A stretch of DNA of 32,000 nucleotides from Geotalea daltonii FRC-32 (GCF_000022265.1 NC_011979.1:3690001-3722000), one strand, 5' to 3'. Positions 1,678-21,856 are shown, numbered from the stretch's first letter. A program made the numbers and translations. The notes: generated by a model from the sequence alone, not told the origin.

Positions 1678-3015
1678 TTATCCCATAATCTGTTTATCCC
1701 GGACAGCCCGCTGCTCTTCCTTCCATTTTTCATAGGCGATCTTCATCCCTTTGCGCACCGGCAGCTGATTCATCAGCGACAGGATATGGGCAAACGGAAA
1801 GCCAGACAGCGGCACATGACGCATATGGCTAAAGATCCTCCAGTTACTGAGAATTTCCAGAGATGTTTCGTAAAATGCCTCTTCTCGTGCTGCCGGTGTC
1901 ATTCGCGGATCGGGGTGATCAAAAAGTGCATATGCCCCGGTGTAATACTCCCAGCCAAGATCCTTATAGATGTATGGTTCATACTGACGACGCAACTCGG
2001 TACCCGGGTATGGCACAAGCAGCGAAGGATGCATGCTGACTCCCAGACGGTCCGCCAACTCCACGGAACGCTTGAAATCATCCAAGGAATCATTTCTCCC
2101 CCCCAGCATGTAAAACAATGAGACATCAATGCCATGGTCACGGAGGGTTCTGACGGCTCGTTCGCGGTCGACGCCAATTTTACCGTTTGCTTTGTAGGCG
2201 GTCAGAGAATCATCAGAAATGGCATCCCATCCCACCCAAACAGTCAGCATTCCGCTTTCCCGGGCGGCGTTCAGCATGCGTGAACCGCTGGGTGTCAATA
2301 CCGGGCGCAGGCTGCCGAAGCCCATCCACTTCTTGCCGCTCCCTCTAAGGGCAGTGAACATATCGATTGCACGCTGCTCGAATCCTTCCCACCAGATATT
2401 TTCATCTCCATTGATGTACATCTTCTCCGGAACGGCACAGACGTCACGCACCACATCCTCGATGGGGCGAAAGCGGATGCTTGCTCCATAAAAGGGTTTG
2501 ACTGAGCAGAAGGTGCAGTTATACGGGCAACCGCGGGAAGTATTGATGACACGGAACTGGTGCCCTCCGGAAAGTTTCCCGAAAAAGGGGGTTGGGAGAT
2601 CGTTGAGGGGGAGTTGCTCCCCCCGGTAGAACGGTTGCAGCCGGCCGGCCTTGAAGTCGCGCAGGACCTGCGGCCACGTTGATTCCGCCTCGCCGATGAC
2701 GACCGCATCCCCGTGGGATTTGGCCTCTTCCGGCATGGAGGAGGCATGGATACCGCCGAATACGACTTTTATGCCCTTAGCCCGAAGGGCATCGGCGATC
2801 ATATATCCCGGCACGGCTGTCGGGGTCAGGATGCTGATGGTTGCCAGGTCGCATTGGATTTTGTCGATGGCCTCGGGGGTGGCACTGGCGCTTATCAGCT
2901 CGATCTCGATATTGGGATCTTCCCTGTGCGTTAATGCCGCAAGATACTCAAGGATCGGCGGTGCGACCGGCGTCCAGCCGAAGGGAAGCGGAGGGAAGAT
3001 AATGCAGACTTTCAT
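1678..3015 (-). CDS. B12-binding domain radical SAM protein
   Basis: 445-aa ORF. The N-terminal Rossmann-like cobalamin-binding region is 'MKVCIIFPP...VVFGGIHAS'. The canonical radical SAM motif 'SRGCPYNCTFCS' (CX3CX2C) is present. GAAAGGTG lies upstream of the ATG. Confidence 0.85.
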   Translation of the reverse strand: MKVCIIFPPLPFGWTPVAPPILEYLAALTHREDPNIEIELISASATPEAIDKIQCDLATISILTPTAVPGYMIADALRAKGIKVVFGGIHASSMPEEAKSHGDAVVIGEAESTWPQVLRDFKAGRLQPFYRGEQLPLNDLPTPFFGKLSGGHQFRVINTSRGCPYNCTFCSVKPFYGASIRFRPIEDVVRDVCAVPEKMYINGDENIWWEGFEQRAIDMFTALRGSGKKWMGFGSLRPVLTPSGSRMLNAARESGMLTVWVGWDAISDDSLTAYKANGKIGVDRERAVRTLRDHGIDVSLFYMLGGRNDSLDDFKRSVELADRLGVSMHPSLLVPYPGTELRRQYEPYIYKDLGWEYYTGAYALFDHPDPRMTPAAREEAFYETSLEILSNWRIFSHMRHVPLSGFPFAHILSLMNQLPVRKGMKIAYEKWKEEQRAVRDKQIMG

Positions 3016-3058: not shown

Positions 3059-3592
3059 TCAGAGATCGAGTTTTTGGTTAGCATATATGGCATCGAGTAC
3101 CACCTTTGCATCAGCCCTGGGTGTTCGGTAAATCCTTCCGCCGCTTCGTATTTCGACGTTTGTCATCATCGCCAAACCATAGGCACCATCCGGATAGATG
3201 ACGAACTTTACTTCTATCCCTCTGGCGGTGATACCGGCGCTCCTCTTCTTGAAATCGAAAAGACCGGTGGGAATGTAGCCGACAAAGTCCACGAAGATAT
3301 TACCGTTCGCGGCCCTGGTCTCGCGCCATTCCCTCTTTTTGAAATACCCGTATTTGCCGAAAGCTTCGCCTATGGGCATTTTCGGGTATCCGGGAAGAAT
3401 GGCCTTCTGAATGACACCGGCCATATCCGTGGGACCTGCACTCGAACCGCTGGCGGTAGAGTGCGGAGATTGGTTCATGGCAGGAGTCACGCTTGGGACG
3501 ACGACACCTCGTTTTTCAAGTCCGGGCATGGCGTCAGCAGTGCCTAACAGTCCTACGATGCTGATTGCCGTAATCAATGTCATTGCGCGCAC
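3059..3592 (-). CDS. Secreted hypothetical protein (signal peptide, no recognisable domain)
   Basis: 177-aa ORF with a GTG start preceded by AAGGGG at 7 nt. The N-terminal hydrophobic segment 'MTLITAISIVGLLGTADA' looks like a signal peptide. No Cys or heme motifs. Confidence 0.55.
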   Translation of the reverse strand: MRAMTLITAISIVGLLGTADAMPGLEKRGVVVPSVTPAMNQSPHSTASGSSAGPTDMAGVIQKAILPGYPKMPIGEAFGKYGYFKKREWRETRAANGNIFVDFVGYIPTGLFDFKKRSAGITARGIEVKFVIYPDGAYGLAMMTNVEIRSGGRIYRTPRADAKVVLDAIYANQKLDL

Positions 3593-5779: not shown

Positions 5780-7072
5780 TCAGAATAGGTTATCAACCTT
5801 CCACCAGAGAGTGCGACCGACTTTGGCACCATACCCGACAGTTTTACCGTCAGGAAATACCTGAATGTCCCATACCCCATCGTAATGAGGCAGTTCTCTG
5901 ACAGTATGACCTTGCAGGTCAGCGACAACGGCAAATCGCTCCCCATCCTTACGGGTACGATATACCACATGATTTCCATTCGGAATAAATTGCGGCGTAA
6001 CAACCTTGTCAAAGGCCGGACCATTTGCACCGTTCACCACAATAAAATTCTTAGGGCCGATTGCTGCGCCATAAACGAAATTCGATCCGTTTCGGCTAAA
6101 AGAAGGGAAATTTATGGAGTCATATGTATTGCCGGTATTTTTGCCGTTTAGAAAGGAAACAACTTTCCCGCCAAGAAAGCCAGTGTGGATGGTGTTGCCT
6201 GTTGAAGAAACCACCAGCTCAAAGACAGACTGGAGATTGTCGGTCTTATGCTTTACTCCGTCGACAACCAGGAAGGTTTCCCCCCTCTGACTCGCCAGAA
6301 AGGCAAGATGTTTGCCATTTTCAGAAAGATCCAAGGCAAAGATTTGATCGTACCACTCAGTTTCAACGGGCTTGGGGGCCGAACCATCGAGATCCAGCAT
6401 TATAACGGCACTCTGGCCATTCAAGGTAGCAGAATAAGCCAGATGTGTCTGTAATTCATCAAGGTTAACAAAACTTATGGAGTCATAATTCCTGTCTGTG
6501 ACACAACTTTTAAGCTTTTCACTGCAAATATGCAGAGCACTACCCTTTTGCTCTGCGACAAAGGCTACTTTTTTGGGGGAGGAAAGGAGAAAGGTATCGG
6601 AAATTGTGCCCTTGAAGGGTTCAATCTCCTTCCCATCCGATACCATCAGGGATTGGTCGCCTTGGGTTGCCGAATATATAACACGGCCGCTCCTGCTATA
6701 GGCAAGGTGGTTAATAGTGTCGTAGCTTTTTCCTTCCTTACCGTCCACGACCACAAGTTCTTTGCCCCCCTTTCTTGCGATATAGGCACACTCTGACCCC
6801 GATGGTGAAAATGCCGGACCTCGAACATGCTCGTAAAAGATACCCATCTTGTCGTTGATAACCATCGCTTCCTTACCGTTGGACTTCACGGCATACGCAA
6901 CCTTATTACCATCATCACTGAATAAGGCGTCGTCAAACTCAGCACCTTCAGGAATGTTTGCCAGGAGCGTAGATTTGGTGTTCAAGTCAGGTGATGTGGA
7001 ATGAGAACCTTTCTTGCAAGCGGAAAAAGCGAATATAACGACAATCATAGACAGAAGTATGCGCATTCTCAT
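5780..7072 (-). CDS. Lipoprotein with repeated beta-propeller-like (TolB/PD40-like) units
   Basis: 430-aa ORF with GGAGG 5 nt upstream of the ATG. The lipobox is 'IFAFSAC'. There are about 8-9 degenerate ~40-aa units of the form 'S.dG..vAY.a...gk..vvvdGk....yd.i'. Confidence 0.6.
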   Translation of the reverse strand: MRMRILLSMIVVIFAFSACKKGSHSTSPDLNTKSTLLANIPEGAEFDDALFSDDGNKVAYAVKSNGKEAMVINDKMGIFYEHVRGPAFSPSGSECAYIARKGGKELVVVDGKEGKSYDTINHLAYSRSGRVIYSATQGDQSLMVSDGKEIEPFKGTISDTFLLSSPKKVAFVAEQKGSALHICSEKLKSCVTDRNYDSISFVNLDELQTHLAYSATLNGQSAVIMLDLDGSAPKPVETEWYDQIFALDLSENGKHLAFLASQRGETFLVVDGVKHKTDNLQSVFELVVSSTGNTIHTGFLGGKVVSFLNGKNTGNTYDSINFPSFSRNGSNFVYGAAIGPKNFIVVNGANGPAFDKVVTPQFIPNGNHVVYRTRKDGERFAVVADLQGHTVRELPHYDGVWDIQVFPDGKTVGYGAKVGRTLWWKVDNLF

Positions 7073-7130
7073 GTTAACCTCCGGTTGCAGAAATCATTCT
7101 GGATTTGGTCATGTCGAGCAGTATCAGTTC

Positions 7131-7163
7131 AAAAAAAAAAGCCCCACCCTTATGGGCGGGGCT
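7131..7163 (-). terminator. Rho-independent terminator after the giant cytochrome gene
   Basis: The minus strand reads GCCCCGCCC-ATAA-GGGTGGGGC followed by T10, 26 nt after the stop codon at 7189. Confidence 0.85.
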
Positions 7164-7188: not shown

Positions 7189-10100
7189 CTAATAGGTACC
7201 GCCAACCGTATAGGTCTTGCCGGACTGGTTGGAACATGCGCCTCCGGTATAGGAAACCATGGAACATTGCGGACTGTAGGTACTTGAGCCGATCATCCGC
7301 GGTTGGTGGTTGCTCAGATTCATCCTGTTACGGATAAAGGCATACGGTCTGGTGTTCACCTGAGCAGGGGTGCCTGCCGATCCAAGCCACCGGACAGTTG
7401 CGGTAGCGCCTGTGGTCGGCAAGGCGTTGGTTCCGTGGAAGTTATCCGACCTTGCCGGGCGGGTGCCTGTGTTGGCATCTGCATGACAGTAATGACAGTT
7501 AAGGAAGGTAGTGCCGTTCATATCACCCGAAGTTGTAGTAAAGGCCGAACCGGTTGCGCCGGTATTGTGGCCCGGATAAGTATAGGTGAGGTGACATGAT
7601 GAGCAATGTGTCGGGCTGGACACATAAATAGTACCATTGGTCGTGGCGTTGCCGCCGCGAATCAGAACGTTGGCGTCGCCATGGGCTGAAATGGTGCGGA
7701 GTGTCTTCATTCCGGTAGTCTGGCCGGTGTTGTGACAATCGAAGCAACTCATAATTACACCAGAAGACTTTGTCCCAGAGGTACCGCGGGTGCCGGTCGG
7801 TTTGTAGGGATCGGCAAGTCGGGCAGCGGTTGGGTAGTCAGCCGAGCGGGCGGCACGTACCGGGTGCTTGGATGAGTTGGTCGGGTCGAACTGGCTGAAG
7901 GCATTAAGCACAGTATATCCTCCGCCAAAAGGAGCAGTGGGAGTTGGAGATGTTCCAGCTCTTGCCGTGGTGTTCGCAGCACCTCCAGAATCATGGCAGG
8001 TGAGGCAGAATTTCTGGGTAATTACACTGGCAACTGTATTGTTGATGGCCGAAGACCGGGTTCCTGAAGCAAATGATGTTGAGAAACGCTGGAAGGTGAA
8101 TGCCGCATTGTTATTATCGGTAATGGCAACCTCACCACTGCCATCGGGGTTCCGGAGATCGATATTTCCATCAGCGTGATATTTGGAGGTTTTCTGGGTG
8201 GTGAAGTTGCCCTCCAGGTGGCAGACGATACAGTCAGCATCTGCGACTGCGGTACGAGTTGATTTCTTGTGCCCGTAAGTCTTGCCGAACTCGGCCGTTA
8301 CAGCAGCAAGTTGCTTCCCTGGCCGGCCTTTCGTACGGGTGATGGCCGCTGCATGGCAATCGGTACACTTAAGGGTATTGAGCCCCCAGGTGGTGGTAAT
8401 GTGACAAGCAAGGGTACAGGTGGAGTAGCCGGAATTTGCCGGATGCTTGGCAACGTTGGCCGGGTAGCCCTGGTTCGTAACATCGATGTCTGTGTCGCCA
8501 TGGGCTGCGTTGGCATAGCTCTGGGTTACTGTATTGGAGACGGCGCCGGTATGGCACTCATCACAGATATAACGGCCATAGTTCATGTGAGCCGAATGAC
8601 TGCCGGTGTTGGGACCCTTCTGGTTGGAAGGTGAGGAGTAGGTAATGAAAGCGCCGGCTACGTTGTGGCATGCGCCACAACCTGCGCCCGTGCTGCCCCA
8701 GGCTGGTGTCGAGCCAGCGCCTGAGCCGTAGGGGCTTCCATGACAGGTTGTGCTGCAAGTGCGGTTACTGTAACCATCGTTGGCTGGGTGCTTGGTAACG
8801 TTAGTCTGGTAGCCGACGTTTACTATGTCGATATCACCATCGGTGTGACCATTGGCAACTGACGGTGCGGCGGTTGCCGAAGTCCCTGTCGCGTGGCAGT
8901 TGGTACATGCATAGGCGCTGTGAGTACCATGGCCGCCGGTTGCCGGGCCACTTGCGCCGATAGGATAGGCGGAGTGGCAGGCGGAGCAACCATTGTTGGT
9001 GGTGCCCCATTGTGGCGTGAGTGATGATCCCGTGGTGCTGTAGACATTGCCATGGCAGCTTGCGCTAGAACATTTTGAGGTTGCGCTGCTCCAGCCAAGT
9101 GCCGAGTCAAGATTTACGACAGCAGGGTTGGTGGTGGTGTTACCACTATTTCCGGGCCCGTGATCGGCATTGCCGCCGGAGCCGCCGATATTGTGGCAAG
9201 TGGTACAACCGTTGGTAGCGGCCGGGACGTGGACGGAGTGATTGCCTGCTACATCCGGGTGAACGGTGCCGTTAGGTTCGCCGGTACCGCCTGCAGCACC
9301 ATGGCAGCTGCCGCAGCCGATGTTGGCGGTCAGAGGATCCCCCTTGGTGTGACAGGACTGACAGTTAGGTGGCGTGCCGCCAGTCGCTGGGTAGGTACCA
9401 GCAGGTGTACTGTTGGTATGGCAGCCTATGCCGCTGGAACAATCGGTGTGGCCGGCACTGGTAGCATAAAGTGGAACAGTGTGGCCATTGCCCTTGAAGC
9501 CTTTGTTGTGGGGGTGGCACTTGATGCATTCCGCCCGGTTGTAATGGGTATTGGAAGTCACGGATTTACCGACTGACTTGACGGAAGAGCTATATTGATG
9601 GAAATTTGTCTGGTGGTGGCAGACTTCGCAGATATTGGTCGAACGGTTCAGGGTCGACCGCTGATCGTTACCGAAGAGATCCATGGCATTCGTCACGGTG
9701 GAGGTCATCCGTGAGAAGGTAACGCTTCTTGTGCCTGTTGGGGTGGCAATCTGCTGAGCAACCTGCTTGACGTTATTGGTACCGGCGGTGTGGCACCAGG
9801 TGCAGTCTTTGCCGGCGCCCCAATTGCCGTAGCCTTTGGCGTTGCTTGGATCAAGATTCGCTGCACTGTGCATCAGGGGATTTACGTAGGCAGTAGTGGA
9901 AGTAGACCCGGTCACTATGCCGTTTGCCGGGGTGCGGCCATCAGCGTCAGTGAATGTCGCCTGGAAATAGTAGATAGTTGATTCAGCAAGGTTATTGATG
10001 GTAGCAACATAGGAGCTGCCGGATTTTGCGGAGGTTGCTGTGTTAGGATAGGTCCCATTGACAGTACCCCACTTGATGACACAGCTGTTATTGTTGTTAT

Positions 10101-11772
10101 CGTCACCTGTAAAAGGTGCAGTCACCGTGATCGAGTTGCTGGTAACGCCCGAATAGCTAAGCGCTCCTGCAGTGGTGCCGTTAACAGCAGCGGCACGAGT
10201 GACGGTAACCGTGTAGGTCTTGGTTGTAGTGCCGTCTTGGGCAGTGACGACCGTGGTAATGGTGTTTGACCCGACCACAAGGGCTATGGGAGCGGATGCC
10301 GTACCGCTGGCAACGGTGGTGCCGTTCACTTTAACTGTTGCAGTCGCGTCCTCAACCGTGGGAGTCACTGTAATTGAGGCAACGGGGTTAGCGACCGAGG
10401 CCGTGTAGGATATGGTTCCGCTGGCAAAAGCAGGGCTCAAGGTACCGGAAGACAGCACCAGGTTGCTCAGATTTGCATTTGTTGAAGCAGCGGCCGCACG
10501 TGTAACGACAACGGTGTATGTCTTGGTGGTTGTGCCATCTTGTGCAGTAACGACAGTTGTTATGGTGTTTGCGCCCACACTCAGTGCAATCGGGCCGGAA
10601 GCCGTACCACTGTTGACTGCAGTGCCGTTTACGGTGGTGGTGGCGGTGGTATCAGCCTCGGTGGGTGTTACTGTAATGGAGGAAACGGAGTTTGCTACCG
10701 AGGCGGTGTATGAGGTAGTTGCACTGGAGAAAGCAGGTGACAGCGTACCGCTGGACAGAACAAGATTACTCAGATCTGCATTTGAGGAGCCTGCTCGGGT
10801 AACAACCACTGTGTAGGTTTTGGTCGTAACGCCATCTTGGGCTGTTACGACAGTTGTGATCGTATTGGAGCCGACTGCAAGGGAAATGGGGCCGGAAGCA
10901 GTACCACTGTTGACAGCAACTCCATTAACAGTTGTCGTAGCCGTCGTGTCCGCCTCTGTCGGCGTAACGGTAATAGACGAGACGGAATTGGCGACAGAAG
11001 CGGTATAGGAGGTGGTCGTGCTACTGAAGGTAGGCGTCAATGTCCCAGACGAGAGCACTAAATTGCTAAGGTTGGCATTATTGGAAGCCGCGACAACCTC
11101 ATTAACAATCAAAACACCAGAAGTTCCTGTTCCGGCCGTATCAGCTGTAGATCCCCAGTATACCCGCTTAGCAGTTGATGTACCCGCTGTCGCTCGAACA
11201 CGGATGCCGAGCTTGGCACCGACAGGAACAGTCGCAGATTGTCCTGTCAATGACAGAGTGACTGTTGAATCTCCTACCGATGCCACCGCCGATGTCACTT
11301 CAGTGCCGGTGAAATCTGTTTTTGTCCCGCTCGAAGTCACATAAAATAACCTGACACCGGCAGTCCATCCACCAGACCCACTGTCGCGAAGCCTTACTTT
11401 AAAGGAGGTGCCTGTTACCGTGGTGGCAACAGCATATGCAGAATTAAAATACGCCTCCACAATAGTGCCTGCACCGGAAACAGTATGGACAGCACGCTGA
11501 CTGGCGCAAGCAAAAGCGGATGTATCCATTAGGGTTGTAACAGCCCCGGTATTATTTGTTCCGCATGCACTCGAGTCGGTCAAAACTCCGGTTGCGACCG
11601 TGGTCCCTGAATTGACCTGAAGATTATAGGTCACTGAAGCGGCCATGATTTCATGTGGCTTATACCACCCCTCATACATGAACACCGACAGGGTCAAAGT
11701 AAACAGCACCGTCAATGCCACCTTTGCCCACAGATTCAATCCTCGGATCTTCTTAGCGATAACCTTACCCAT
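7189..11772 (-). CDS. Giant membrane-anchored multiheme c-type cytochrome (~20 heme motifs) fused to three cadherin-like beta-sandwich repeats and an FN3-like segment
   Basis: 1527-aa ORF with SD AAGGGG upstream. The N-terminal basic plus hydrophobic anchor spans aa 1-33. Three ~100-aa repeats of the form '[38 protein letters not shown]...[10 protein letters not shown]' span aa 232-526. There are 16 CXXCH motifs between aa 657 and 1430, plus CX5CH (aa 778), CX4CH (aa 901), CX3CH (aa 1006) and CX3CH (aa 1119). Confidence 0.9.
10195..11079 (-). repeat. Three tandem ~300-bp coding repeats (cadherin-like domains) inside the cytochrome gene
   Basis: The protein repeat period is 99-101 aa (L235, L334, L435). 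The same periodicity shows in the antisense shadow ORFs at 10220, 10412 and 10820, which have near-identical translations. Confidence 0.85.
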
Positions 11773-12322
11773 AATCTCTACCCCTTAGTCAAGTAGTAAT
11801 CAAAATATATTAAAAGAAGCCTTTTCATCCGCGCTTGTCTTTAAATAATAAAATTCTAGGAGCTAATGAATGCAAAAACAGTACCCATAATCTAGACAGT
11901 AACCCTCCCATTAAAGTACAGCACCAAGCAAGGTCTGAAAACGGCTGGTTTAAAACAATAATTTTCTGGCTATCACGAGGTTTGCGTGGATATTTTTTTA
12001 TACGAATATGTGCCCCCGAGTAAATTCAACAGGTTATCCCAATGCCGTATCCACTCCCCCCCTTTCAATTTTGCCGGCAGCGCAAGATCCATTACGTTGT
12101 AAAACGGACGCCGATAGTCATTTGACCATTGATGCAATAGCGAGGAACCAAAGTCGAAATTGCCCGGAACCTTATATACATTATTAGCAATTGTCAAGAT
12201 ACATGTCTTACTGATCTTTTACGCCGCAGTTCAAAAGCATGACCCCGAGCCCAAAATTGTTGTTTAGCGTTGTTTAGTCTGTTAGATTACCTCCATATCC
12301 ATTTTGATTGGAGACCCACTAT

Positions 12323-14874: not shown

Positions 14875-15762
14875 TTAACGGCAACAGGGATCAGGTTCAT
14901 CCCAGGAACCGCCGGCAAAATATCCCCTGCCACGGCACCCGCCAAAGCAACCCGACAGCTCTAAGCACCCGTCGCACCCTTTGGGCGTCTTCATCAAGTT
15001 CTCCCGCAAGCTTCTTTTTGCCATCGAATGCACAATTGATGACAGTGTCATCTCCTTGAGATTCCCCAAGGCCACGGGAAGAGACGGACAGGGGTAAACA
15101 TCACCGCTGGCCGTGATGCTAAGCATGGTATTGGCTGCCTGGCAACTCCCTTCCGGAAAATGAAGGGTCGGGAAGAACACCCGCCACAAAAAAGGGTCGT
15201 GGATAACAACCTGCATTTTGTCAGGCTTGACCACCTCTTTTATTCCATCGGAGAGTTTCTGCCGCTGTTGCCTGTCCAAGGCAAAATAGCCTCCACCACA
15301 GGAGAGCCGTTGCATGGGCAATACCAGTGATAAACCATGATTGGCGCAGAACGAGTATATCTCCGGCAGCTGATGGTAATTATCAGCTGCAACGGCAAAA
15401 GAGATCCCTGGTACCGGTACGCCGGCAGTTCGGAAATCATGGCGATTCACTCGGGCAAGGTCTGCTGATTCTTCAATAGCCACATAGAGATTTCTAAGGC
15501 GGTAATGGCAGATCTGATCCAGAAGTGCAGGAGTAATGGTCGCCAGGGGAATGGTCAAAGAAAGGGCAATCTGAACCGGGGAAAATAATTCCAGTAATGG
15601 CAGGTAAATGGCGCCGGGAGTGGCCTTCGTAGCGGTGAGATCGAGACTGAGTATCTTCAGCACTATGATCTGCTCACCGACACTGAGACAATCATTATCA
15701 GCAGCGTCGGCAGGCAAATCCCAGTAAATCCTGATGGGAGTTTTCAGCTCACTGAAATTCAT
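14875..15762 (-). CDS. SPASM-domain protein lacking the radical SAM CX3CX2C cluster (GeoRSP-type SPASM partner)
   Basis: A full SPASM cysteine pattern is present: 'C-X17-C' (ending 'GDVYPC') followed by 'CDGCLELSGCFGGC' (CX2CX5CX3C) and a C-terminal 'DPCC'. There is no CX3CX2C anywhere after Met27. The start at 15762 forms an ATGA overlap with the upstream stop. The longer 321-aa ORF-track form overlaps the upstream gene out of frame. Confidence 0.75.
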   Translation of the reverse strand: MNFSELKTPIRIYWDLPADAADNDCLSVGEQIIVLKILSLDLTATKATPGAIYLPLLELFSPVQIALSLTIPLATITPALLDQICHYRLRNLYVAIEESADLARVNRHDFRTAGVPVPGISFAVAADNYHQLPEIYSFCANHGLSLVLPMQRLSCGGGYFALDRQQRQKLSDGIKEVVKPDKMQVVIHDPFLWRVFFPTLHFPEGSCQAANTMLSITASGDVYPCPSLPVALGNLKEMTLSSIVHSMAKRSLRENLMKTPKGCDGCLELSGCFGGCRGRGYFAGGSWDEPDPCCR

Positions 15763-16757
15763 GGCTGCCAGCAGTGGGGATCGGGACTGTTGAAATCGCC
15801 GGTCAACGCAAGGGCACGGGCACTGCAGCCTCCAAGGCATTCATTGTAGTCGCTGCAGCCGACACATTTACCTGTCGCCACTTTGTTGCGCAGCTTTTCC
15901 AGAATCGATGAGCTCTTCCATAGCTCCCGAAGGTCGTCGGCAAGGATATTGCCGATGACGATGGGTATGAAACCGCAGGGGGTAATGTCGCCATTGGACT
16001 TTATGTTCAGGGACAGCTTGCCGCAGACACTCCCCTTGACCATGTTGTTGGTGTCATGCATTCCCAATGAGGCGATTATCGGATCATCCAGGGAGATGTC
16101 CAGCTTACGCCCCCGCTGTTTTTCCATTATCGCCTCTGCGTAAAATGACTGCCATTCCTCAGGTGTCAGGTCCAGATCATCCCTGTTGGAATAACCGAGG
16201 CCCGAACATTTGAAATTGTGGAAGTTGAGCTGCTCCACATGGAGTTTTTCCGCCAAATCTATGAGCGGAGCAACGTCACGGTGGTTCAACTTGCAGATAA
16301 CTGTGGAGATGGAAGTCTTTATTCCTGCCTCCTGCAAGTATGCCAAAGCATTTACGGCACGCCCGTGGCTGCCGGACACACCACGGAAATGGTCATGGAT
16401 GGCAGGAACGTGGCTGTCGATACTGATGCCCACCTTGCTGAACCCGGCCTCTTTCAATTCCAGGGCTTTCTTGCGGTCGATGAGGTAACCATTGCTGTTC
16501 ATGGATACTCGCATGCCGCTTTGGGCAGCACAAGAAGCGATCGTCGCCAAGTCCTGACGCAGCAGCGGCTCGCCACCGCCGAAATTGACCGACATGACAC
16601 CAGCCGTGGCAACTTTCTCAAGACACTGGCATAACATACTGCAGTCTATTTCTTTCATGGCATCATTGCGGCTATAGCAGTGGCGGCAGGCGAAGTTGCA
16701 GTTATTGTTGACAGCCCAGTTTATCGTAAGCGGTGCCTTAAGCTGAATTTCACCCAT
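15759..16757 (-). CDS. Radical SAM/SPASM-domain maturase
   Basis: 'CNFACRHC' is a CX3CX2C motif, followed by 'GGGEPLL'. The SPASM pattern is 'C-X15-C' (ending 'GDITPC') followed by 'CVGCSDYNECLGGC' (CX2CX5CX3C) and 'DPHC'. The start at 16757 (MGEIQL) overlaps the PqqD-like stop as ATGGGTGA. Confidence 0.85.
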   Translation of the reverse strand: MGEIQLKAPLTINWAVNNNCNFACRHCYSRNDAMKEIDCSMLCQCLEKVATAGVMSVNFGGGEPLLRQDLATIASCAAQSGMRVSMNSNGYLIDRKKALELKEAGFSKVGISIDSHVPAIHDHFRGVSGSHGRAVNALAYLQEAGIKTSISTVICKLNHRDVAPLIDLAEKLHVEQLNFHNFKCSGLGYSNRDDLDLTPEEWQSFYAEAIMEKQRGRKLDISLDDPIIASLGMHDTNNMVKGSVCGKLSLNIKSNGDITPCGFIPIVIGNILADDLRELWKSSSILEKLRNKVATGKCVGCSDYNECLGGCSARALALTGDFNSPDPHCWQP

Positions 16758-17106
16758 AGAAGATAAACCCTTTCTGTTCCAGATCCTGCAAAAACGAATG
16801 CACATCCTGAGACAGTACTGCTCGTTCTACCTCAAAGTCAGCCAGTAAGGAATCGATGATCTCCTCGACGGTCCTGCCGTCGCAGATCTTCCATATTTCG
16901 GTGCCCATCAGGTTCAGAGTAATCATGATGCCGTCCGAGAAGAGCAGCGAGGTGCCCACTTCGGTCACGTCATTCCCCTTCTCCAGCCCTGCGCTCGCTT
17001 CCAAAAGAGAGTCCTCTTCCTCGCGCCACATCACATCAGGGTTTCTAAATACCTTTTTCAACAACACGCCCTCCTTTATGGAATGTTGTATCAGCGACCA
17101 ATGCAT
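16750..17106 (-). CDS. PqqD-family protein (RiPP-recognition-element-like chaperone)
   Basis: 'ITLNLMGTEIWKICDGRTVEEIIDSLLADFEV...VLSQDVHSFLQDLEQKGFI' fits the PqqD/RRE pattern. The start is uncertain. ATG 17106 gives 118 aa. The 151-aa form starting at 17205 would overlap the ResB-like gene. Confidence 0.7.
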   Translation of the reverse strand: MHWSLIQHSIKEGVLLKKVFRNPDVMWREEEDSLLEASAGLEKGNDVTEVGTSLLFSDGIMITLNLMGTEIWKICDGRTVEEIIDSLLADFEVERAVLSQDVHSFLQDLEQKGFIFYG

Positions 17107-17131
17107 GAAAGGCAAAGGGCCGACAGGGAAT

Positions 17132-18061
17132 TTATCTTTGTGCAAACCTTCGCCAAAAAGCAAGAACTGCCCCAAGACACATGATTGCGAAGCCGCAGAA
17201 AACAACAGGCCGGCCCGGATCTTTCACTATCTGAATGCCTGCGAAGGAGCGGCCATTTCCGTCGGTTCCAGTCTGTGTATGATAGAAACAGAGTCCCTGC
17301 CAGGAAAACGGTGCGTTGATTTCCGATGTCCCCGAGACAGGGGGCTTGTCATCACTGGATAGCTGAAGATCGACCCACATCCTCTTGAGCTGGGGATTTT
17401 TATAGGAGACAAGCTTGAAAGCATAAGGGAAATCGAGAGGCAGCGTGCTGTTACCGGAGGTGTCGGCTGTGCCGACGATCCCGTCCCCTTTGTGAACCAC
17501 AAGTACCAGCCTGAGATTTTTGGGCTCAAAGTCCGTGACCGAGACACGATAACCGGGCAGTTCAAAACTTTCACCGGTGGCAAGGGTGAACAGGCCGTAT
17601 TTTTCGTTACCCTGCAGGACACCGACGCGGACCGGCACCGGGTAATACTGGCGATTTATCTGCTTTACCCATAGCCGCATGTGGAATGGGGCATCCCTCT
17701 TCAGGTCCCAGCGAAAAGCCTCGTCTACAAAGGTGCCTTCATAAACGTTCACCGTGGCCACATAACCAAAGGAGGTGATCACACAGCCCAAAAGAGTAAC
17801 CAGAACTCCTCCATGAAGAACGAGGGTCGATCCGGCTAACGAGCGCCACCTTTTCATGCTGCAGCATATAAGGTTCAATGCCATCAGGGCCAGCAGACTG
17901 ACAAACAGTGGGCTTGAGTAAATCGCCCGTGATTCGGTGAAGGTTCCTGGTATTGCAACGATGGTCAATATACCGAAAAGGGCAATTGCCAGTTCCGTTG
18001 AGGAGAGACCATTGATAATTCGTGATTTCAGACCCGGTGGCAGCAAGACAGAACCTTTCAT
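17132..18061 (-). CDS. ResB-like cytochrome c biogenesis family protein (short, orphan paralogue)
   Basis: The ResB-type N-terminus is 'LSSTELAIALFGILTIVAIPGTF...SSPLFVSLLALMALNLICCS'. There is a second TM segment, a ~200-aa soluble region and a C-terminal TM. No CcsA partner is adjacent. The start is ATG 18061 or TTG 18067. Confidence 0.7.
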   Translation of the reverse strand: MKGSVLLPPGLKSRIINGLSSTELAIALFGILTIVAIPGTFTESRAIYSSPLFVSLLALMALNLICCSMKRWRSLAGSTLVLHGGVLVTLLGCVITSFGYVATVNVYEGTFVDEAFRWDLKRDAPFHMRLWVKQINRQYYPVPVRVGVLQGNEKYGLFTLATGESFELPGYRVSVTDFEPKNLRLVLVVHKGDGIVGTADTSGNSTLPLDFPYAFKLVSYKNPQLKRMWVDLQLSSDDKPPVSGTSEINAPFSWQGLCFYHTQTGTDGNGRSFAGIQIVKDPGRPVVFCGFAIMCLGAVLAFWRRFAQR

Positions 18062-18080
18062 CCGCAAAGCAGACTGTGCA

Positions 18081-18659
18081 TCAGATTAACTTCTTTGCCT
18101 TGAGATATTCCCGGGCCAGCTTGTTCGGCTTGTCCTCGGCCTTTACCATTTTGACCATTCTGGAATAGTTGTTGTCATTGACAATCCCGGTGAGCTTGTT
18201 GATCAATTTCGGTAGAGCCGGCAGATTGCCTAAAATCTCGAGAGAAATAACCGGTGCAACCAGCTGGCTGGAGCCATTGCCGGTCAAGGTGCCCAGTGGC
18301 TCGAGCCAGACAAGGTTGAATGTCTTGCGATGCTCTCTTTTTACAATCTCGAATGCAGTTTTGGCGTTGGCTTCCCTAGGTCGCTTGACCAGCTCCAGCC
18401 CGTGATCTGTGTTTTCAATGATCAATCCCACCTGGCCGTGCCTGACCGCATTGTATATTTCGGCCCCGGTCTTGAAGGTAAGGATTTTGACGGAGGTGCC
18501 GGTCCTCTCGGTGACAAGGACGGAGATCATTTCAGCAAGCAATTGATCATTGGGGGAGTTGGTGACACCGATATAGAGCACCTTGCCGACGCAAGCCCTG
18601 GCTTGGGTTGCCATAACGGCCAGAAGGGTAAAGATCACCAGCACAACCAACCTCTTCAT
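18081..18659 (-). CDS. Secreted OpuAC-like (glycine-betaine-type) substrate-binding domain protein
   Basis: Signal peptide 'MKRLVVLVIFTLLAVMATQARA'. 'QLLAEMISVLVTERTGTSVKI...EIYNAVRHGQVGLIIE' resembles the ABC glycine-betaine SBP fold. GAGGAGGA lies 6 nt upstream of ATG 18659. Confidence 0.5.
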   Translation of the reverse strand: MKRLVVLVIFTLLAVMATQARACVGKVLYIGVTNSPNDQLLAEMISVLVTERTGTSVKILTFKTGAEIYNAVRHGQVGLIIENTDHGLELVKRPREANAKTAFEIVKREHRKTFNLVWLEPLGTLTGNGSSQLVAPVISLEILGNLPALPKLINKLTGIVNDNNYSRMVKMVKAEDKPNKLAREYLKAKKLI

Positions 18660-18680
18660 AAAACATCCTCCTCGCATCAG

Positions 18681-19379
18681 CTATTTTGCCGTTAATACCA
18701 CGTCGATTGCAATATCCGATTGGGATGATACTGCAGACAGCCGTTTTTCCAGCTTCATTCCAGGACCAGTGGGAAAGGTTACGGCGGCGCCGATAAAATA
18801 TTCGCCGGGAGGCAGATAAAGGGTGTACAGGCCGGTTTCCTCGGTCCAGCCGGAGACATAATCGGGCAGCTGGCTCACCTCCCTCATGGCGTTGACCAGC
18901 ACATACGCCGAGCTGACAGGCGCCCCCTCACCGTCTACCACCCTTCCACGGACCTTGACCATATCCTCTCTGGCTTTTTGTTTGCCCTTCGCCACCTGGC
19001 GTATATCGGCAACGATGAATTGCCGTTCAACGAGCCCTTCATCGGCATCAATGGCCACAGGTTCACCTGAATGCTGGGCCGCAGGTGACAGTGGACCATA
19101 CTTGCCATCCTGGCGCACCCTTGCCACAGCCCAATATCTTTTGCCTGCAGGCAACTGGATGGTGTAGCTGCCCTCCTTATCGGATGGTCCGGTAATGAAA
19201 TCAGCGGGGCGCCTGGTATTGGTACTGTCGTAGATGAAAACCTCGGCACCGCAGACTCCCTTGCCGGCCATATCGACAATTTTCCCGCGGAAGATGAATG
19301 TTTGCGCAGCCATATCTTCACCATAACTGAAAGTGACCATGAACAACAAAAGTAAAATTGCGAGTGCTGATTTTCTCAT
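18681..19379 (-). CDS. Secreted protein with two carboxypeptidase-regulatory-like (prealbumin-fold) domains
   Basis: A signal peptide is present. Two copies of the motif occur: 'FRGKIVDMAGKGVCGAEVFIY...GSYTIQLPAG' and 'VRGRVVDGEGAPVSSAYVLV...GLYTLYLPPGEY'. The start overlaps the upstream stop by 4 nt. Confidence 0.6.
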   Translation of the reverse strand: MRKSALAILLLLFMVTFSYGEDMAAQTFIFRGKIVDMAGKGVCGAEVFIYDSTNTRRPADFITGPSDKEGSYTIQLPAGKRYWAVARVRQDGKYGPLSPAAQHSGEPVAIDADEGLVERQFIVADIRQVAKGKQKAREDMVKVRGRVVDGEGAPVSSAYVLVNAMREVSQLPDYVSGWTEETGLYTLYLPPGEYFIGAAVTFPTGPGMKLEKRLSAVSSQSDIAIDVVLTAK

Positions 19380-21856
19380 TGCACTATATTCCCTGTCTTG
19401 ACCCGCTTTGAGAGAAATGGCTCAAAAATTACCACGCCTATGCCAGGCTCATTACGCCCGTCAAAAATGGTGTTAGCCGGGATACCCTCCCCCCACCAAT
19501 TTCCGGCGGCATCCACATTTTCGTCGTTAAAGTCGCCGATCCTGACGTTGTAGCCGGTGTTGTCAAACAGGTTGCTGCCGTTGATTTTCAGACCACTGCC
19601 TTTTTCTCTGACAAATACACCCGTTTCATTCCTGGTTATGTCGCTCGCCTCAATGCTCCCATTGCCACGATAGGAACGGATACCTATGGAATTATCCCTG
19701 AAAAGGCACCGTTTAATGGATACCGGGCCGCTTCTGAAACGCATGCCGCCATTATTGTTGCGGAAAATGCTGTCGGCAAGGGACAGTTTGGTAAAATGGC
19801 TGTGCAGGCCCCATTGGGCATACTCGAAAACCGCATGGGAGATGACACTGCCGTTTGCATGCTCCAGAAGCACCTCGTCCCACGTACCCGGCAATTTTTT
19901 ACCTGCGGAGGTGAAAATGACTTCGCGGCCTTTTTCACCTCTGGCAACGATTTTACCGTTGACTGTCATTCCTGAACCTTCGGCAAACAAGACTTTAGTT
20001 CCAGCCAAAAGAGTAAGAGTACTCGCCGTGGGAATCTGGAGCCTGCGATTTGCGATAATCTCGCCTTGCCATACGGTCGGAGTAGCCACGCTGGCCAGCG
20101 GCCAGACGAAGGGCACCGGTTGTGTCAATGGATTATCGGAAATGATGCGGCCTCGGGAAGGATGGTTTCTGCGATCAAAGATCACCCTGGCAGGCTCATC
20201 AGTCCCCCACCAGTTGTCCGGTGCTTCCACATCATTTGTACCTTCCTGATCAATTGCCCAGAGTCCGTTGCCCATGAAGCTGTTGCCGGTAAGGGTTCCG
20301 GTAAAGGAGAGCAACCCTAGTCCCCGTTCACCATTGGCGGCAATCTGGTTCCCCTTGATCTCGGCTCTGGTTTCCTGCAGATTCATCCCGTTGAGGCCGT
20401 TGTTCGCCACAAAATTTCCGAAAAGTTCTATATTGTCGGAATTTTTCAGGGATAAGCCTGTTTCAGCATTATTGGAGACAACGTTACGGTTAAACCTGCC
20501 GGAAAAAGTGTCAGCTACCATGAGGCCAAACCTGTTACCGTCAATCAGATTCTCTTCCATGACGGTAACCCCTTCCCTTAGTCTCAGCCCATCCCTCCTG
20601 TTGCCAATGAACTCGTTTTGCCTGACCTGCAGGTTACATCTGAAGAAGTTTCCCCCTATGTAATTGCTGCTGATCAGATTGCCTGACATATCGATAGTAG
20701 AGTTCCTGCCCTGGATGCCACTCTTGTTTTCATACAACCGGTTGCCATGGAGCACAACCAGGGATTCCTGAAATTGAATAGCGCGATAGTTTCCCTTCAG
20801 CACTGAATGCGTCACCGCCACATTGGAAAAATGAAAATGGAGCCCTCGATAGGCGCCCTCTATCTGGCAATACTCGATCAGGTTCTGGACTCCATCGCTG
20901 CCCATGATGTTTATAGCGTCCCAGTCAGTATCTGACCTGCCTTTTTCGGCCGAACGAAAGATAATCGGTTCCTTGGCACTCCCCTTGGCCAAAATACTGC
21001 CTTGTATCATCAGTCCATTTTCGCCAATCCCATCACCATTTGAATCTCTTCTGCTGAATTCGATGACAGTACCCGGAAGTATCGCCAGCCTGGCTCCTTC
21101 AGGCACTCGGATGATCCCTTTGACGATGATGTGCCCTTGCCAGATTGTGCTGCCCAAAAGCACCTCATCCTGGTAGATTCTACTGACAGGCAGGTCTTTT
21201 GTAGTGCTGAGGGGAATCTGAGCTGCCGGCTGCTGGAGATCTGCTGCATGGAAATCCTTTTTCCTGTTGTTGCCAATGGTGCTATTATGCTGCACGATCC
21301 TGGCACCGCTGAAAGCGTAGACCCCGAAATCATTGTCTGCAACAGTAGTGGATTTGAGGACCACAGAACTTTTTGGCCCGATTGCCGATACTCCATACCG
21401 GTTCCCATTGATTTTGCAGCCGTCCACTGTTGCCGTTCCCTCAATGACATGCAAGGCAGTTTCCGCATTGTCTATACTGCATCCACTGAGGAAAGCCCTG
21501 CCTCCATCCACGATCAAACCAGCCCATGAAGCATTTTTGGCTTCGCCAGGCGAAGAAAATTTGACCGGGAAAGTCCTTGTGCCCTCCACTTTCAATGTTC
21601 CACGAACGGTGATCTCGGTTAAGGGAGATATGTATTCAGGATCAGTCTTGGTAGTATCGGCGGGAATTATCCTTACAACAGTGCCTGGTTTGAGGGTCAG
21701 GGAGATACCTGACGGAACAATCACATCTTCGTTGACGGTGACTTCTCCCTGCCATGTGGTATCGGCAGTTAATAGAGTTGCAAACGCAAAAGCAGGAAAT
21801 AGCAGGCACAGGGCAAAGGCAACCAGGAAGGTAGTTTTTTTCATGGGCAGAGTCAT
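19376..21856 (-). CDS. Secreted right-handed parallel beta-helix repeat protein (NosD/CASH-like), three helix modules
   Basis: 826-aa ORF with signal peptide 'MKKTTFLVAFALCLLFPAFAFA'. Three cap modules begin 'TTWQGEV', 'STIWQGHI' and 'PTVWQGEI'. Each is followed by many PbH1-like 'N...G' repeats. Confidence 0.7.
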   Translation of the reverse strand: MTLPMKKTTFLVAFALCLLFPAFAFATLLTADTTWQGEVTVNEDVIVPSGISLTLKPGTVVRIIPADTTKTDPEYISPLTEITVRGTLKVEGTRTFPVKFSSPGEAKNASWAGLIVDGGRAFLSGCSIDNAETALHVIEGTATVDGCKINGNRYGVSAIGPKSSVVLKSTTVADNDFGVYAFSGARIVQHNSTIGNNRKKDFHAADLQQPAAQIPLSTTKDLPVSRIYQDEVLLGSTIWQGHIIVKGIIRVPEGARLAILPGTVIEFSRRDSNGDGIGENGLMIQGSILAKGSAKEPIIFRSAEKGRSDTDWDAINIMGSDGVQNLIEYCQIEGAYRGLHFHFSNVAVTHSVLKGNYRAIQFQESLVVLHGNRLYENKSGIQGRNSTIDMSGNLISSNYIGGNFFRCNLQVRQNEFIGNRRDGLRLREGVTVMEENLIDGNRFGLMVADTFSGRFNRNVVSNNAETGLSLKNSDNIELFGNFVANNGLNGMNLQETRAEIKGNQIAANGERGLGLLSFTGTLTGNSFMGNGLWAIDQEGTNDVEAPDNWWGTDEPARVIFDRRNHPSRGRIISDNPLTQPVPFVWPLASVATPTVWQGEIIANRRLQIPTASTLTLLAGTKVLFAEGSGMTVNGKIVARGEKGREVIFTSAGKKLPGTWDEVLLEHANGSVISHAVFEYAQWGLHSHFTKLSLADSIFRNNNGGMRFRSGPVSIKRCLFRDNSIGIRSYRGNGSIEASDITRNETGVFVREKGSGLKINGSNLFDNTGYNVRIGDFNDENVDAAGNWWGEGIPANTIFDGRNEPGIGVVIFEPFLSKRVKTGNIVQ

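Follow-up and report, generated by a model that had tools for sequence, protein, structure and literature searches.

Geobacter-type bacteria pass electrons to minerals, electrodes and partner cells, and the way in which their giant cytochromes hold on to these targets is poorly understood. To our knowledge, no member of the CxxxxCH/CxxCH family of multiheme cytochromes (TIGR01904/PF09698) has a tested function. An adhesion-type beta-sandwich joined to a multiheme module has been described for the 24-heme protein Ga0056053_03448 of Geoalkalibacter ferrihydriticus, which has an N-terminal FN3 domain (PMC12016550), and for OetF of syntrophic sulfate reducers, which carries FN3 as well (PMC10553843); both were interpreted as serving to adhere or to recognize a partner in the course of extracellular electron transfer. 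The multicopper protein OmpB of G. sulfurreducens, on which Fe(III) oxide reduction depends, also has an FN3 domain, for which a contribution to oxide attachment was proposed (PMC5566968). The decaheme cytochromes MtrC, OmcA and MtrF of Shewanella combine hemes with non-heme beta domains on the cell surface. Multiheme cytochrome genes beside genes of beta-propeller lipoproteins are found in the OmcE clusters (bioRxiv 10.1101/2025.10.22.684050) and in the outer-membrane cytochrome clusters of Desulfovibrio ferrophilus (PMC5815863). Here, a cytochrome gene of Geotalea daltonii FRC-32 is compared with these systems, which is located at positions 7189-11772 on the minus strand of a 32,000-nucleotide (nt) stretch of the genome (NC_011979.1:3690001-3722000), referred to as the window.

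The gene encodes a genuine, intact and exported protein of 1527 amino acids (aa), in which an adhesin-style arm is joined to a 20-heme module. The arm lies N-terminal to the hemes and starts with a tip domain, which is followed by three cadherin-like domains and a single FN3-like domain. The protein with its cadherin-like arm represents a rare variant of a Geobacter cytochrome family that was already known, rather than a novel type of system.

With the CxxxxCH/CxxCH family the protein shares the units that begin with a CXnCH motif and, with many of its members, also the leader peptide and the TYTxGGxY end, whereas it differs by about 590 aa of non-heme domains in front of the hemes and by motif spacings of CX3, CX4 and CX5 instead of CX4 only. 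By analogy, it would work most like the FN3-bearing multiheme cytochromes of Desulfuromonadia and syntrophic sulfate reducers. Compared with Ga0056053_03448 and OetF, the arm is longer, contains PF12733 domains and has a distinct tip, and the likeness is one of domain architecture. OmpB resembles it as a redox protein with an FN3 domain, but contains copper instead of heme and is unrelated in sequence. As for MtrC, OmcA and MtrF, the C-terminal region of the G. daltonii protein gives a PF22113 match, whereas its beta domains are of another type and are located at one end rather than interleaved with the hemes. Membership in the MtrC/OmcA family was rejected, as the PF22113 match is partial, no NCBIfam MtrC/OmcA family matched and no MtrC structure was found in the PDB by the family profile at E ≤ 1; genes for an MtrAB-type porin or an MtrA-like periplasmic partner were not found near the gene. 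The adjacency of cytochrome and propeller lipoprotein is shared with the OmcE/OmcS and D. ferrophilus clusters. In contrast to these, the cluster lacks a large barrel gene, its cytochrome exceeds a nanowire subunit by far in size, and genes for ResB-like, CcsA-like and B12-binding radical SAM proteins are added. A nanowire subunit of the OmcS, OmcE or OmcZ type was rejected due to the missing PDB sequence match of both the protein and the family profile.

The product is 100% identical to ACM21690.1 (WP_012648418.1, UniProt B9M506) of G. daltonii FRC-32, formerly Geobacter daltonii. It is named "cytochrome c, 20 heme-binding sites" in GenBank and "cadherin-like beta sandwich domain-containing protein" in RefSeq, so that both halves of the fusion are already publicly annotated. 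With the protein and its family in the databases and FN3-cytochrome fusions known, the gain is refinement rather than discovery, while the cadherin-like fusion itself is undescribed. In the literature search, no paper was found that treats cadherin-like domains and multiheme cytochromes in Geobacter together, and no paper found mentions the accessions of the protein. A survey of the Desulfuromonadia cytochromome mentions neither cadherin nor the genes of the downstream cluster described below.

An adhesin-style arm joined to a 20-heme module

A sequence-only reading of the window had proposed an open reading frame (ORF) of 1527 aa at this position, in which adhesin-type repeats are fused to a module of about 20 hemes (16 CXXCH and four CX3-5CH motifs). 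It had described a Thr/Ser/Gly-rich region of about 190 aa, three cadherin-like repeats and an FN3-like segment at aa ~527-630. The ORF, the motif count, the composition of aa 45-228 and the Pfam matches of the repeats agree with this description. The FN3-like segment was backed weakly, by a seven-stranded model and weak profile matches, and an above-threshold Pfam match was not obtained. Structure prediction worked well for the cadherin-like repeats, and poorly for the heme module.

Twenty heme motifs were identified between aa 657 and 1430, comprising 16 CXXCH, two CX3CH (aa 1006 and 1119), one CX4CH (aa 901) and one CX5CH (aa 778). Assuming about 1% Cys and about 2% His, fewer than 0.01 CXXCH motifs are expected by chance in 1527 aa. 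Three CXXCH are followed by four units of the TIGR01904/PF09698 type, CXnCH...CXXCH(...CXXCH), and by the four-CXXCH C-terminal domain. The CXnCH and CXXCH motifs of the units start at aa 778/804, 901/929, 1006/1032 and 1119/1136. Across 19 relatives, no or hardly any variation occurs in the Cys, Cys and His columns of the four non-canonical motifs, and the number of units varies among relatives, with 26 CXXCH and 8 CX4CH motifs in P0121 (collected proteins are given as P numbers, loci as L numbers). Furthermore, the heme part contains 28 His residues outside the motifs, which is enough for bis-His ligation of 20 hemes.

The NCBIfam model TIGR01904.2 matches aa 890-951 with 35.5 bits (cutoff 27), and the Pfam families Cytochrome_C7, c3_2 and CIII match the heme region above their cutoffs. 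As judged from these profile matches, the module is a multiheme c-type cytochrome and belongs to the CxxxxCH/CxxCH (TIGR01904) family. PF09698 (GSu_C4xC__C2xCH) was not reported for the protein by Pfam, and is precomputed for many of its homologs. A search with the heme module alone retrieved 115 homologs, many of which are named CxxxxCH/CxxCH cytochromes. The PDB sequence search with the whole protein gave no match, and the heme-family profile matched PDB entries at the level of motifs only, namely the octaheme 1sp3 (E 1e-7), c554 and ActA of ACIII.

The protein ends with TYTVGGTY, which corresponds to a conserved C-terminal end, TYTxGGxY. The C-terminal domain with this end is the signature of cytochromes that lead a gene cluster, and was found in 64 of 79 loci. 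These comprise 77 loci from a scan of species-representative genomes and the two loci of P0010, the syntenic ortholog; the neighboring genes of the window were searched against all their ORFs. PF22113 (MtrC/MtrF domain II/IV) matches the whole protein with E 5.9e-12 and 45.9 bits (cutoff 30), and the C-terminal domain alone with 28.6 bits, which is below the cutoff.

PF12733, the bacterial "cadherin-like" family, matches the arm in three stretches with E 1.6e-63 and 211.6 bits (cutoff 24.2), and the repeats are members of this family. They were modeled by AlphaFold2 as all-beta domains with a predicted local distance difference test score (pLDDT) of 85-96. With the model of the whole arm, the best fold matches in the PDB were strings of immunoglobulin (Ig), FN3 and cadherin ectodomains as well as the S-layer protein SbsC. 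Between the protein and P0010, the repeats are 91-94% identical, compared to 64% for the heme core and 47% for the C-terminal domain. The ratio of nonsynonymous to synonymous substitution rates (dN/dS) is about 0.03 in the repeats, which are the most constrained part, at a dS of 1.0-1.9, where synonymous sites are near saturation. The high identity and low dN/dS in spite of nearly saturated synonymous sites indicate that the arm is old and under strong constraint, which exceeds that on the heme part.

Three repeats as alike as these (pairwise 78-90% identical as protein) could in principle mislead an assembler, and the copy of the gene in Geotalea toluenoxydans is split into several ORFs in a draft assembly, so that a misassembled chimera or a decaying pseudogene was considered. 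The DNA identity of the repeats is, however, merely 67-72%, Tandem Repeats Finder reported no tandem repeat in the gene, and the ORF is unbroken on a 4.30-Mb contig. The same domain order recurs in independent assemblies, namely in P0010 on a 189-kb JGI contig and a Logan contig, with a neighborhood syntenic with the window, and in G. toluenoxydans (P0006/L004). Together with the low dN/dS of the arm (0.03-0.13), these results led to the rejection of an artifact, which we consider extremely improbable; the chimera across the repeats that the sequence-only reading had allowed for was thus looked for and not found.

For the segment between the repeats and the hemes (aa 531-632), the best Pfam match is Pur_ac_phosph_N with E 1.8e-4 and 22.4 bits, below the cutoff of 30, and PF00041 did not match. 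The AlphaFold2 model is a seven-stranded sandwich with a pLDDT of 70-84. A profile of the segment family matches titin, FN3con and the FN3 of neogenin weakly in the PDB (E 2.7e-4 to 0.7), and the Fn(III)-type region of P0251 by hhalign with E 1e-4 and a probability of 57%. These results weakly support an FN3-like domain. The family has 16 distinct segments among the collected sequences and directly precedes the heme core in several relatives. FN3-like domains of the same subtype are repeated in a metagenomic ORF of 2036 aa (L080:5428-11535), which carries 44 heme motifs and no cadherin-like repeats.

The tip domain (aa 45-228) consists of 17.8% Thr, 13.6% Ala, 13.1% Val, 11.5% Ser and 11.5% Gly, and no match was found in Pfam and NCBIfam scans. 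By an exhaustive HMMER search of 1.84 billion proteins, a family of 53 cluster representatives was obtained. Most relatives are heme-free and combine the tip with MBG, YDG, fn3, Cadherin-like or CarboxypepD_reg domains, which are architectures of the surface-adhesin type. In most of them the domain begins 1-3 residues past the AXA of an ordinary signal peptide, e.g., INA|AAVTYNFQ. The family (184 aa; P0237-P0288) has the start motif VTY(N/R)(F/W)Q..G..VATGV.T and forms almost always the mature N-terminus of secreted multidomain proteins. The ortholog P0010 has an unrelated tip, of the type found on the paralog P0094, and tips therefore appear to be exchanged between paralogs; the tip type common to P0094 and P0010 suggests that arms may have been exchanged in this way.

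In relatives, between about 40 aa and more than 1400 aa separate the leader from the first heme, and many family members are armless with the first heme at aa 40-70. Among 41 inserts, Pfam domains are fn3 (5), Qn_am_d_aIII (3), Calx-beta (2), TIG (2), Shr-like_HID (2) and Cadherin-like (2), as well as Big_5, Big_12 and Big_13. The insertion of varied beta-sandwich domains is thus a habit of the family, whereas the two Cadherin-like inserts are those of the protein itself and its ortholog. In total, the fusion of cadherin-like domains and hemes was found in four proteins only, all from Geotalea or Geotalea-like bacteria: the protein described here and P0010 with three repeats each, P0094 with seven, and the G. 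toluenoxydans protein with two repeats and a Big_5 domain. The homology searches on the spread of the fusion thus show a rare cadherin-like version of an insertion that is family-wide. P0094 (ACM21054.1), encoded elsewhere in the G. daltonii genome, has 2104 aa, the same leader, a different tip, an FN3-like domain and 20 heme motifs; its heme module is of a different subtype and ends with CASCHF. A scan of metagenomes with the cadherin/FN3/heme junction was swamped by cadherin-repeat proteins, and none of the 120 cadherin-repeat ORFs from its 80 loci contained heme motifs.

Export, localization and proposed working

The protein starts with a leader of 44 aa, which has a basic n-region and a hydrophobic core at aa 12-30. 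The same leader opens 42 ORFs in the loci L001-L079 and is found in P0010, P0094, P0123, P0141, P0150, P0155, P0178 and P0205. Every carrier among the gathered sequences is multiheme, and the leader-bearing giant multiheme cytochromes belong to Geobacterales and Nitrospirota, whereas heme-free relatives of the tip domain have ordinary signal peptides in place of the long leader. The long leader may therefore be an export signal specific to this class of cytochromes, as far as its distribution indicates. A homolog search with the leader only retrieved a single candidate.

An N-terminal anchor without an obvious AXA site had been proposed in the sequence-only reading. Its basic and hydrophobic character could be confirmed. 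At the homologous position, however, relatives have VQA|A, AQA|A or EAA, where the G. daltonii protein reads IMA|A, and the leader is probably cleaved after IMA rather than serving as an anchor. The tip domain starting 1-3 aa past the AXA site in relatives is independent support for cleavage before ASVTYNLQ. A type IV pilin-like leader was rejected by eye, as the G|F-T-L-I-E motif is absent, and a lipoprotein was rejected, as the leader contains no Cys.

On this basis, a working can be proposed in which the protein is a surface or extracellular electron transfer cytochrome with a built-in tether, a proposition that we regard as evenly balanced. The leader would direct export and be cut after IMA, going by the homology of the site, and the 20 hemes would be attached in the periplasm. 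The ResB-like/CcsA-like pair, which is encoded two genes downstream, might take care of the CX3-5CH sites, as conserved synteny and the precedent of system II lyases suggest. The mature protein of about 1480 aa would be a string of presumably rod-like shape, with the tip, three cadherin-like domains and the FN3-like domain followed by the heme chain. The C-terminal domain may work with the propeller lipoprotein at the outer membrane or cell surface, in view of the synteny and of the OmcE and D. ferrophilus clusters. The arm would tether the heme chain to a partner outside the cell, i.e., a mineral, a matrix polymer or another cell, the exchangeable tip would set what the arm binds, and the net role would be extracellular electron transfer. 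With a constrained arm and a swappable tip on one side and a modular heme chain on the other, targeting and conduction would be separate modules, which can be tested at the domain level.

Surface display of the cytochrome is plausible from domain content and by analogy. Of the 120 relatives that match the repeats best, about half contain type IX secretion system (T9SS), S-layer homology (SLH) or autotransporter sorting domains, counted from precomputed Pfam lists, and the tip family keeps similar company, which speaks for a placement outside the cell. The sequence-only reading had taken the modules to be typical of surface or extracellular proteins. The fusion is confirmed by the Pfam matches and the motifs, and the sorting domains of the relatives support module types that are extracytoplasmic and mostly of the cell surface.

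Several results weigh against the tether model. The localization evidence reaches export only, and the cleavage at IMA|A rests on homology of the site. No gene for an outer-membrane barrel or a secretion system was found in the window or among the neighbors conserved across most loci. A terminator separates the cytochrome gene from the downstream genes, whose co-expression with it is presumptive. The MtrC-like Pfam match is weak and unsupported by the PDB sequence search. The AlphaFold2 model of the heme module, built on a 50-sequence alignment, is unreliable with a mean pLDDT of 50, a Foldseek search of the PDB with this low-confidence model gave nothing meaningful, and the tip model, from a shallow alignment, has a pLDDT below 45 and no reliable fold. 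Expression or phenotype data on the gene were not found in the literature search.

The lack of a secretion or barrel gene would also fit a periplasmic resident that relays or stores electrons, either in free form or anchored through a leader that is not cleaved. Its arm would act as a spacer, or bind peptidoglycan or a partner in the periplasm or outer membrane, for which the propeller lipoprotein is an example. The evident signal is the Sec-type leader only; between its hydrophobic core and the putative cut site lie 11 aa, which is unusually long, and a perfect AXA is missing. Furthermore, the propeller lipoprotein could face the periplasm, and the many armless family members indicate that the heme core works without an arm. 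The repeat type and the tip family, on the other hand, occur overwhelmingly in surface or secreted proteins, and strong constraint of the arm together with tip swapping is more typical of binding modules that face outward. We consider a periplasmic location, whether as relay or store or with the arm as spacer or binder, to be rather unlikely.

Returning to the tether model, its target could be the matrix or another cell instead of a mineral. In this case the arm would associate with itself or bind exopolysaccharide and build a conductive biofilm or aggregate. Consistent with such a scaffold, the domain types are those of cell adhesion and S-layer proteins, the same-genome paralog P0094 has seven such repeats, and an interaction of the FN3 domain with the matrix or with a partner was suggested for OetF (PMC10553843). 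In 20 related loci, moreover, a family cytochrome adjoins an NHL-propeller protein whose C-terminus is dockerin-like by eye. The evidence does not distinguish polymer, cell and mineral targets, and the scaffold overlaps the tether model, from which it differs only in the target. We judge it unlikely as a separate explanation.

A further-reaching version of the tether model is a secreted "electro-adhesin", in which a swappable tip and a rigid cadherin-like stalk would wire the 20-heme chain to a specific mineral face, matrix polymer or partner cell. Tips and stalks would be shuffled between paralogs for retargeting, and maturation and display of this cytochrome class would be served by a pathway of its own, common to Geobacterales, Nitrospirota and Myxococcota and consisting of the leader, the propeller lipoprotein, the B12-radical-SAM protein and the ResB/CcsA-like pair. 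We put this forward tentatively, as a speculation that is more likely to fail than to hold in its full extent.

Neighboring genes and upstream region

Table 1. Positions of the cytochrome gene, the domains of its product, the flanking elements and the downstream genes, counted from the first nucleotide of the window
Feature	aa	Position	Strand	Basis or remark
Whole coding sequence		7189..11772	-	1527 aa + stop, ATG start, uninterrupted ORF
Leader, putative long Sec signal peptide (44 aa)	1-44	11641..11772	-	homology of cut site, hydrophobic core
N-terminal "tip" domain, uncharacterized family	45-228	11089..11640	-	homolog search, no Pfam/NCBIfam match
Cadherin-like repeat 1	232-328	10789..11079	-	Pfam PF12733; AlphaFold2 pLDDT about 90; dN/dS 0.033
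Cadherin-like repeat 2	331-427	10492..10782	-	Pfam PF12733; AlphaFold2; dN/dS 0.030
Cadherin-like repeat 3	432-528	10189..10479	-	Pfam PF12733; AlphaFold2; dN/dS 0.034
FN3-like beta-sandwich	531-632	9877..10182	-	sub-threshold Pfam, AlphaFold2 seven strands, weak profile matches
Heme core, 16 motifs	633-1253	8014..9876	-	motif count, TIGR01904, conserved columns
C-terminal domain, 4 CXXCH	1254-1527	7192..8013	-	PF22113 weak match, conserved columns
Intrinsic terminator		7130..7163	-	AGCCCCGCCC-ATAA-GGGTGGGGCT then T10
Shine-Dalgarno AAGGGG		11781..11786	-	8 nt before ATG; conserved in L001, L003
Candidate sigma54-type element GG-N10-GC GGGTACTGTTTTTGCAT		11870..11886	-	about 100 nt upstream of start codon; a lead only
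Beta-propeller lipoprotein, 430 aa, lipobox AFSA|C		5780..7072	-	weak propeller matches; homolog directly downstream in 54/79 loci
ResB-like (CcsB-type) membrane protein, 386 aa		4483..5643	-	Pfam ResB; 4-5 hydrophobic segments; 51/79 loci
CcsA/ResC-like heme-handling protein, 275 aa		3612..4439	-	Pfam Cytochrom_C_asm E 1e-31; 33/79 loci
Predicted secreted protein, 177 aa (h177)		3059..3592	-	co-conserved, 18/79 loci
B12-binding radical SAM protein, cluster end		1678..3015	-	Pfam + NCBIfam; 38/79 loci

Downstream of the cytochrome gene lies a conserved cluster (Table 1), which trails cytochromes with the C-terminal domain in some 50 loci of Geobacterales, Nitrospirota and Myxococcota (e.g., L006, L016, L018, L019, L030, L034 and L049). 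The 77 loci from the genome scan come from Geobacterales (Geotalea, Geobacter, Geomonas, Citrifermentans), Nitrospirota/Thermodesulfovibrionales, Myxococcota (Anaeromyxobacter) and Desulfuromonadaceae. A monocistronic gene with its own terminator and a 535-bp upstream region had been proposed in the sequence-only reading. The terminator and the gap (11773-12307) were found, while the isolation implied did not hold, as the gene heads a widely conserved cluster. The gene may thus be transcribed alone, yet it is not a free-standing unit.

For the ResB-like and CcsA-like pair, Pfam ResB and Cytochrom_C_asm match above their cutoffs, whereas TIGR03144 matches the CcsA-like protein with 166.8, below the cutoff of 187.6. 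The CcsA-like protein has a shortened W-rich motif, WGWDP...W...W...YLH, with His 229. ResB/ResC pairs of Geobacter have been proposed to be dedicated to adjacent multiheme cytochromes (Aklujkar et al., PMC2700814), and dedicated system II lyases for odd heme motifs are established in Wolinella (reviewed in PMC12285233). The downstream genes suggest that this class of cytochromes, in three phyla, has a maturation or display pathway of its own. If this pathway is needed for heme attachment at the CX3-5CH motifs, it would matter for heterologous expression.

The cluster ends with one or two B12-binding radical SAM enzymes, beside a pair resembling a cytochrome synthase. For the 177-aa protein, no family match was found in Pfam and NCBIfam scans. 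The propeller lipoprotein matches NCBIfam TmcD_fam with E 6e-21 and 75 bits, far below the cutoff of 440; the Tmc electron transfer complex of Desulfovibrio contains TmcD as a subunit.

In the terminator hairpin (7163->7140), 8 of the 10 base pairs of the stem are GC, and T10 follows; the ortholog has a different hairpin at the equivalent place after the stop codon. In the 5' region, an Rfam scan gave no family match. The position of the sigma54-like element GGGTACTGTTTTTGCAT is conserved in three orthologous upstream regions, including L001 and L003, while the element alone is not above chance. Between the window and L001, a TTGACA box (12192-12197) is conserved as well.

In L054 (184-3177) and 19 further related loci (e.g., L009, L013, L019, L033, L039 and L060), a protein of about 900 aa is encoded upstream of the cytochrome, which by eye consists of an NHL-type propeller, Ig-like repeats and a C-terminal dockerin-like pair, and which is absent from the window. 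Furthermore, a second cluster was found in the window at 14875-21856 on the minus strand, encoding a NosD-like beta-helix protein (826 aa), CarboxypepD_reg and OpuAC-like proteins, a second ResB-like protein (311 aa) and two radical SAM/SPASM proteins. It is syntenic in L001 (1-4822), where a PqqD-like gene is also present, and looks like a peptide maturation cluster joined to a ResB-like protein.

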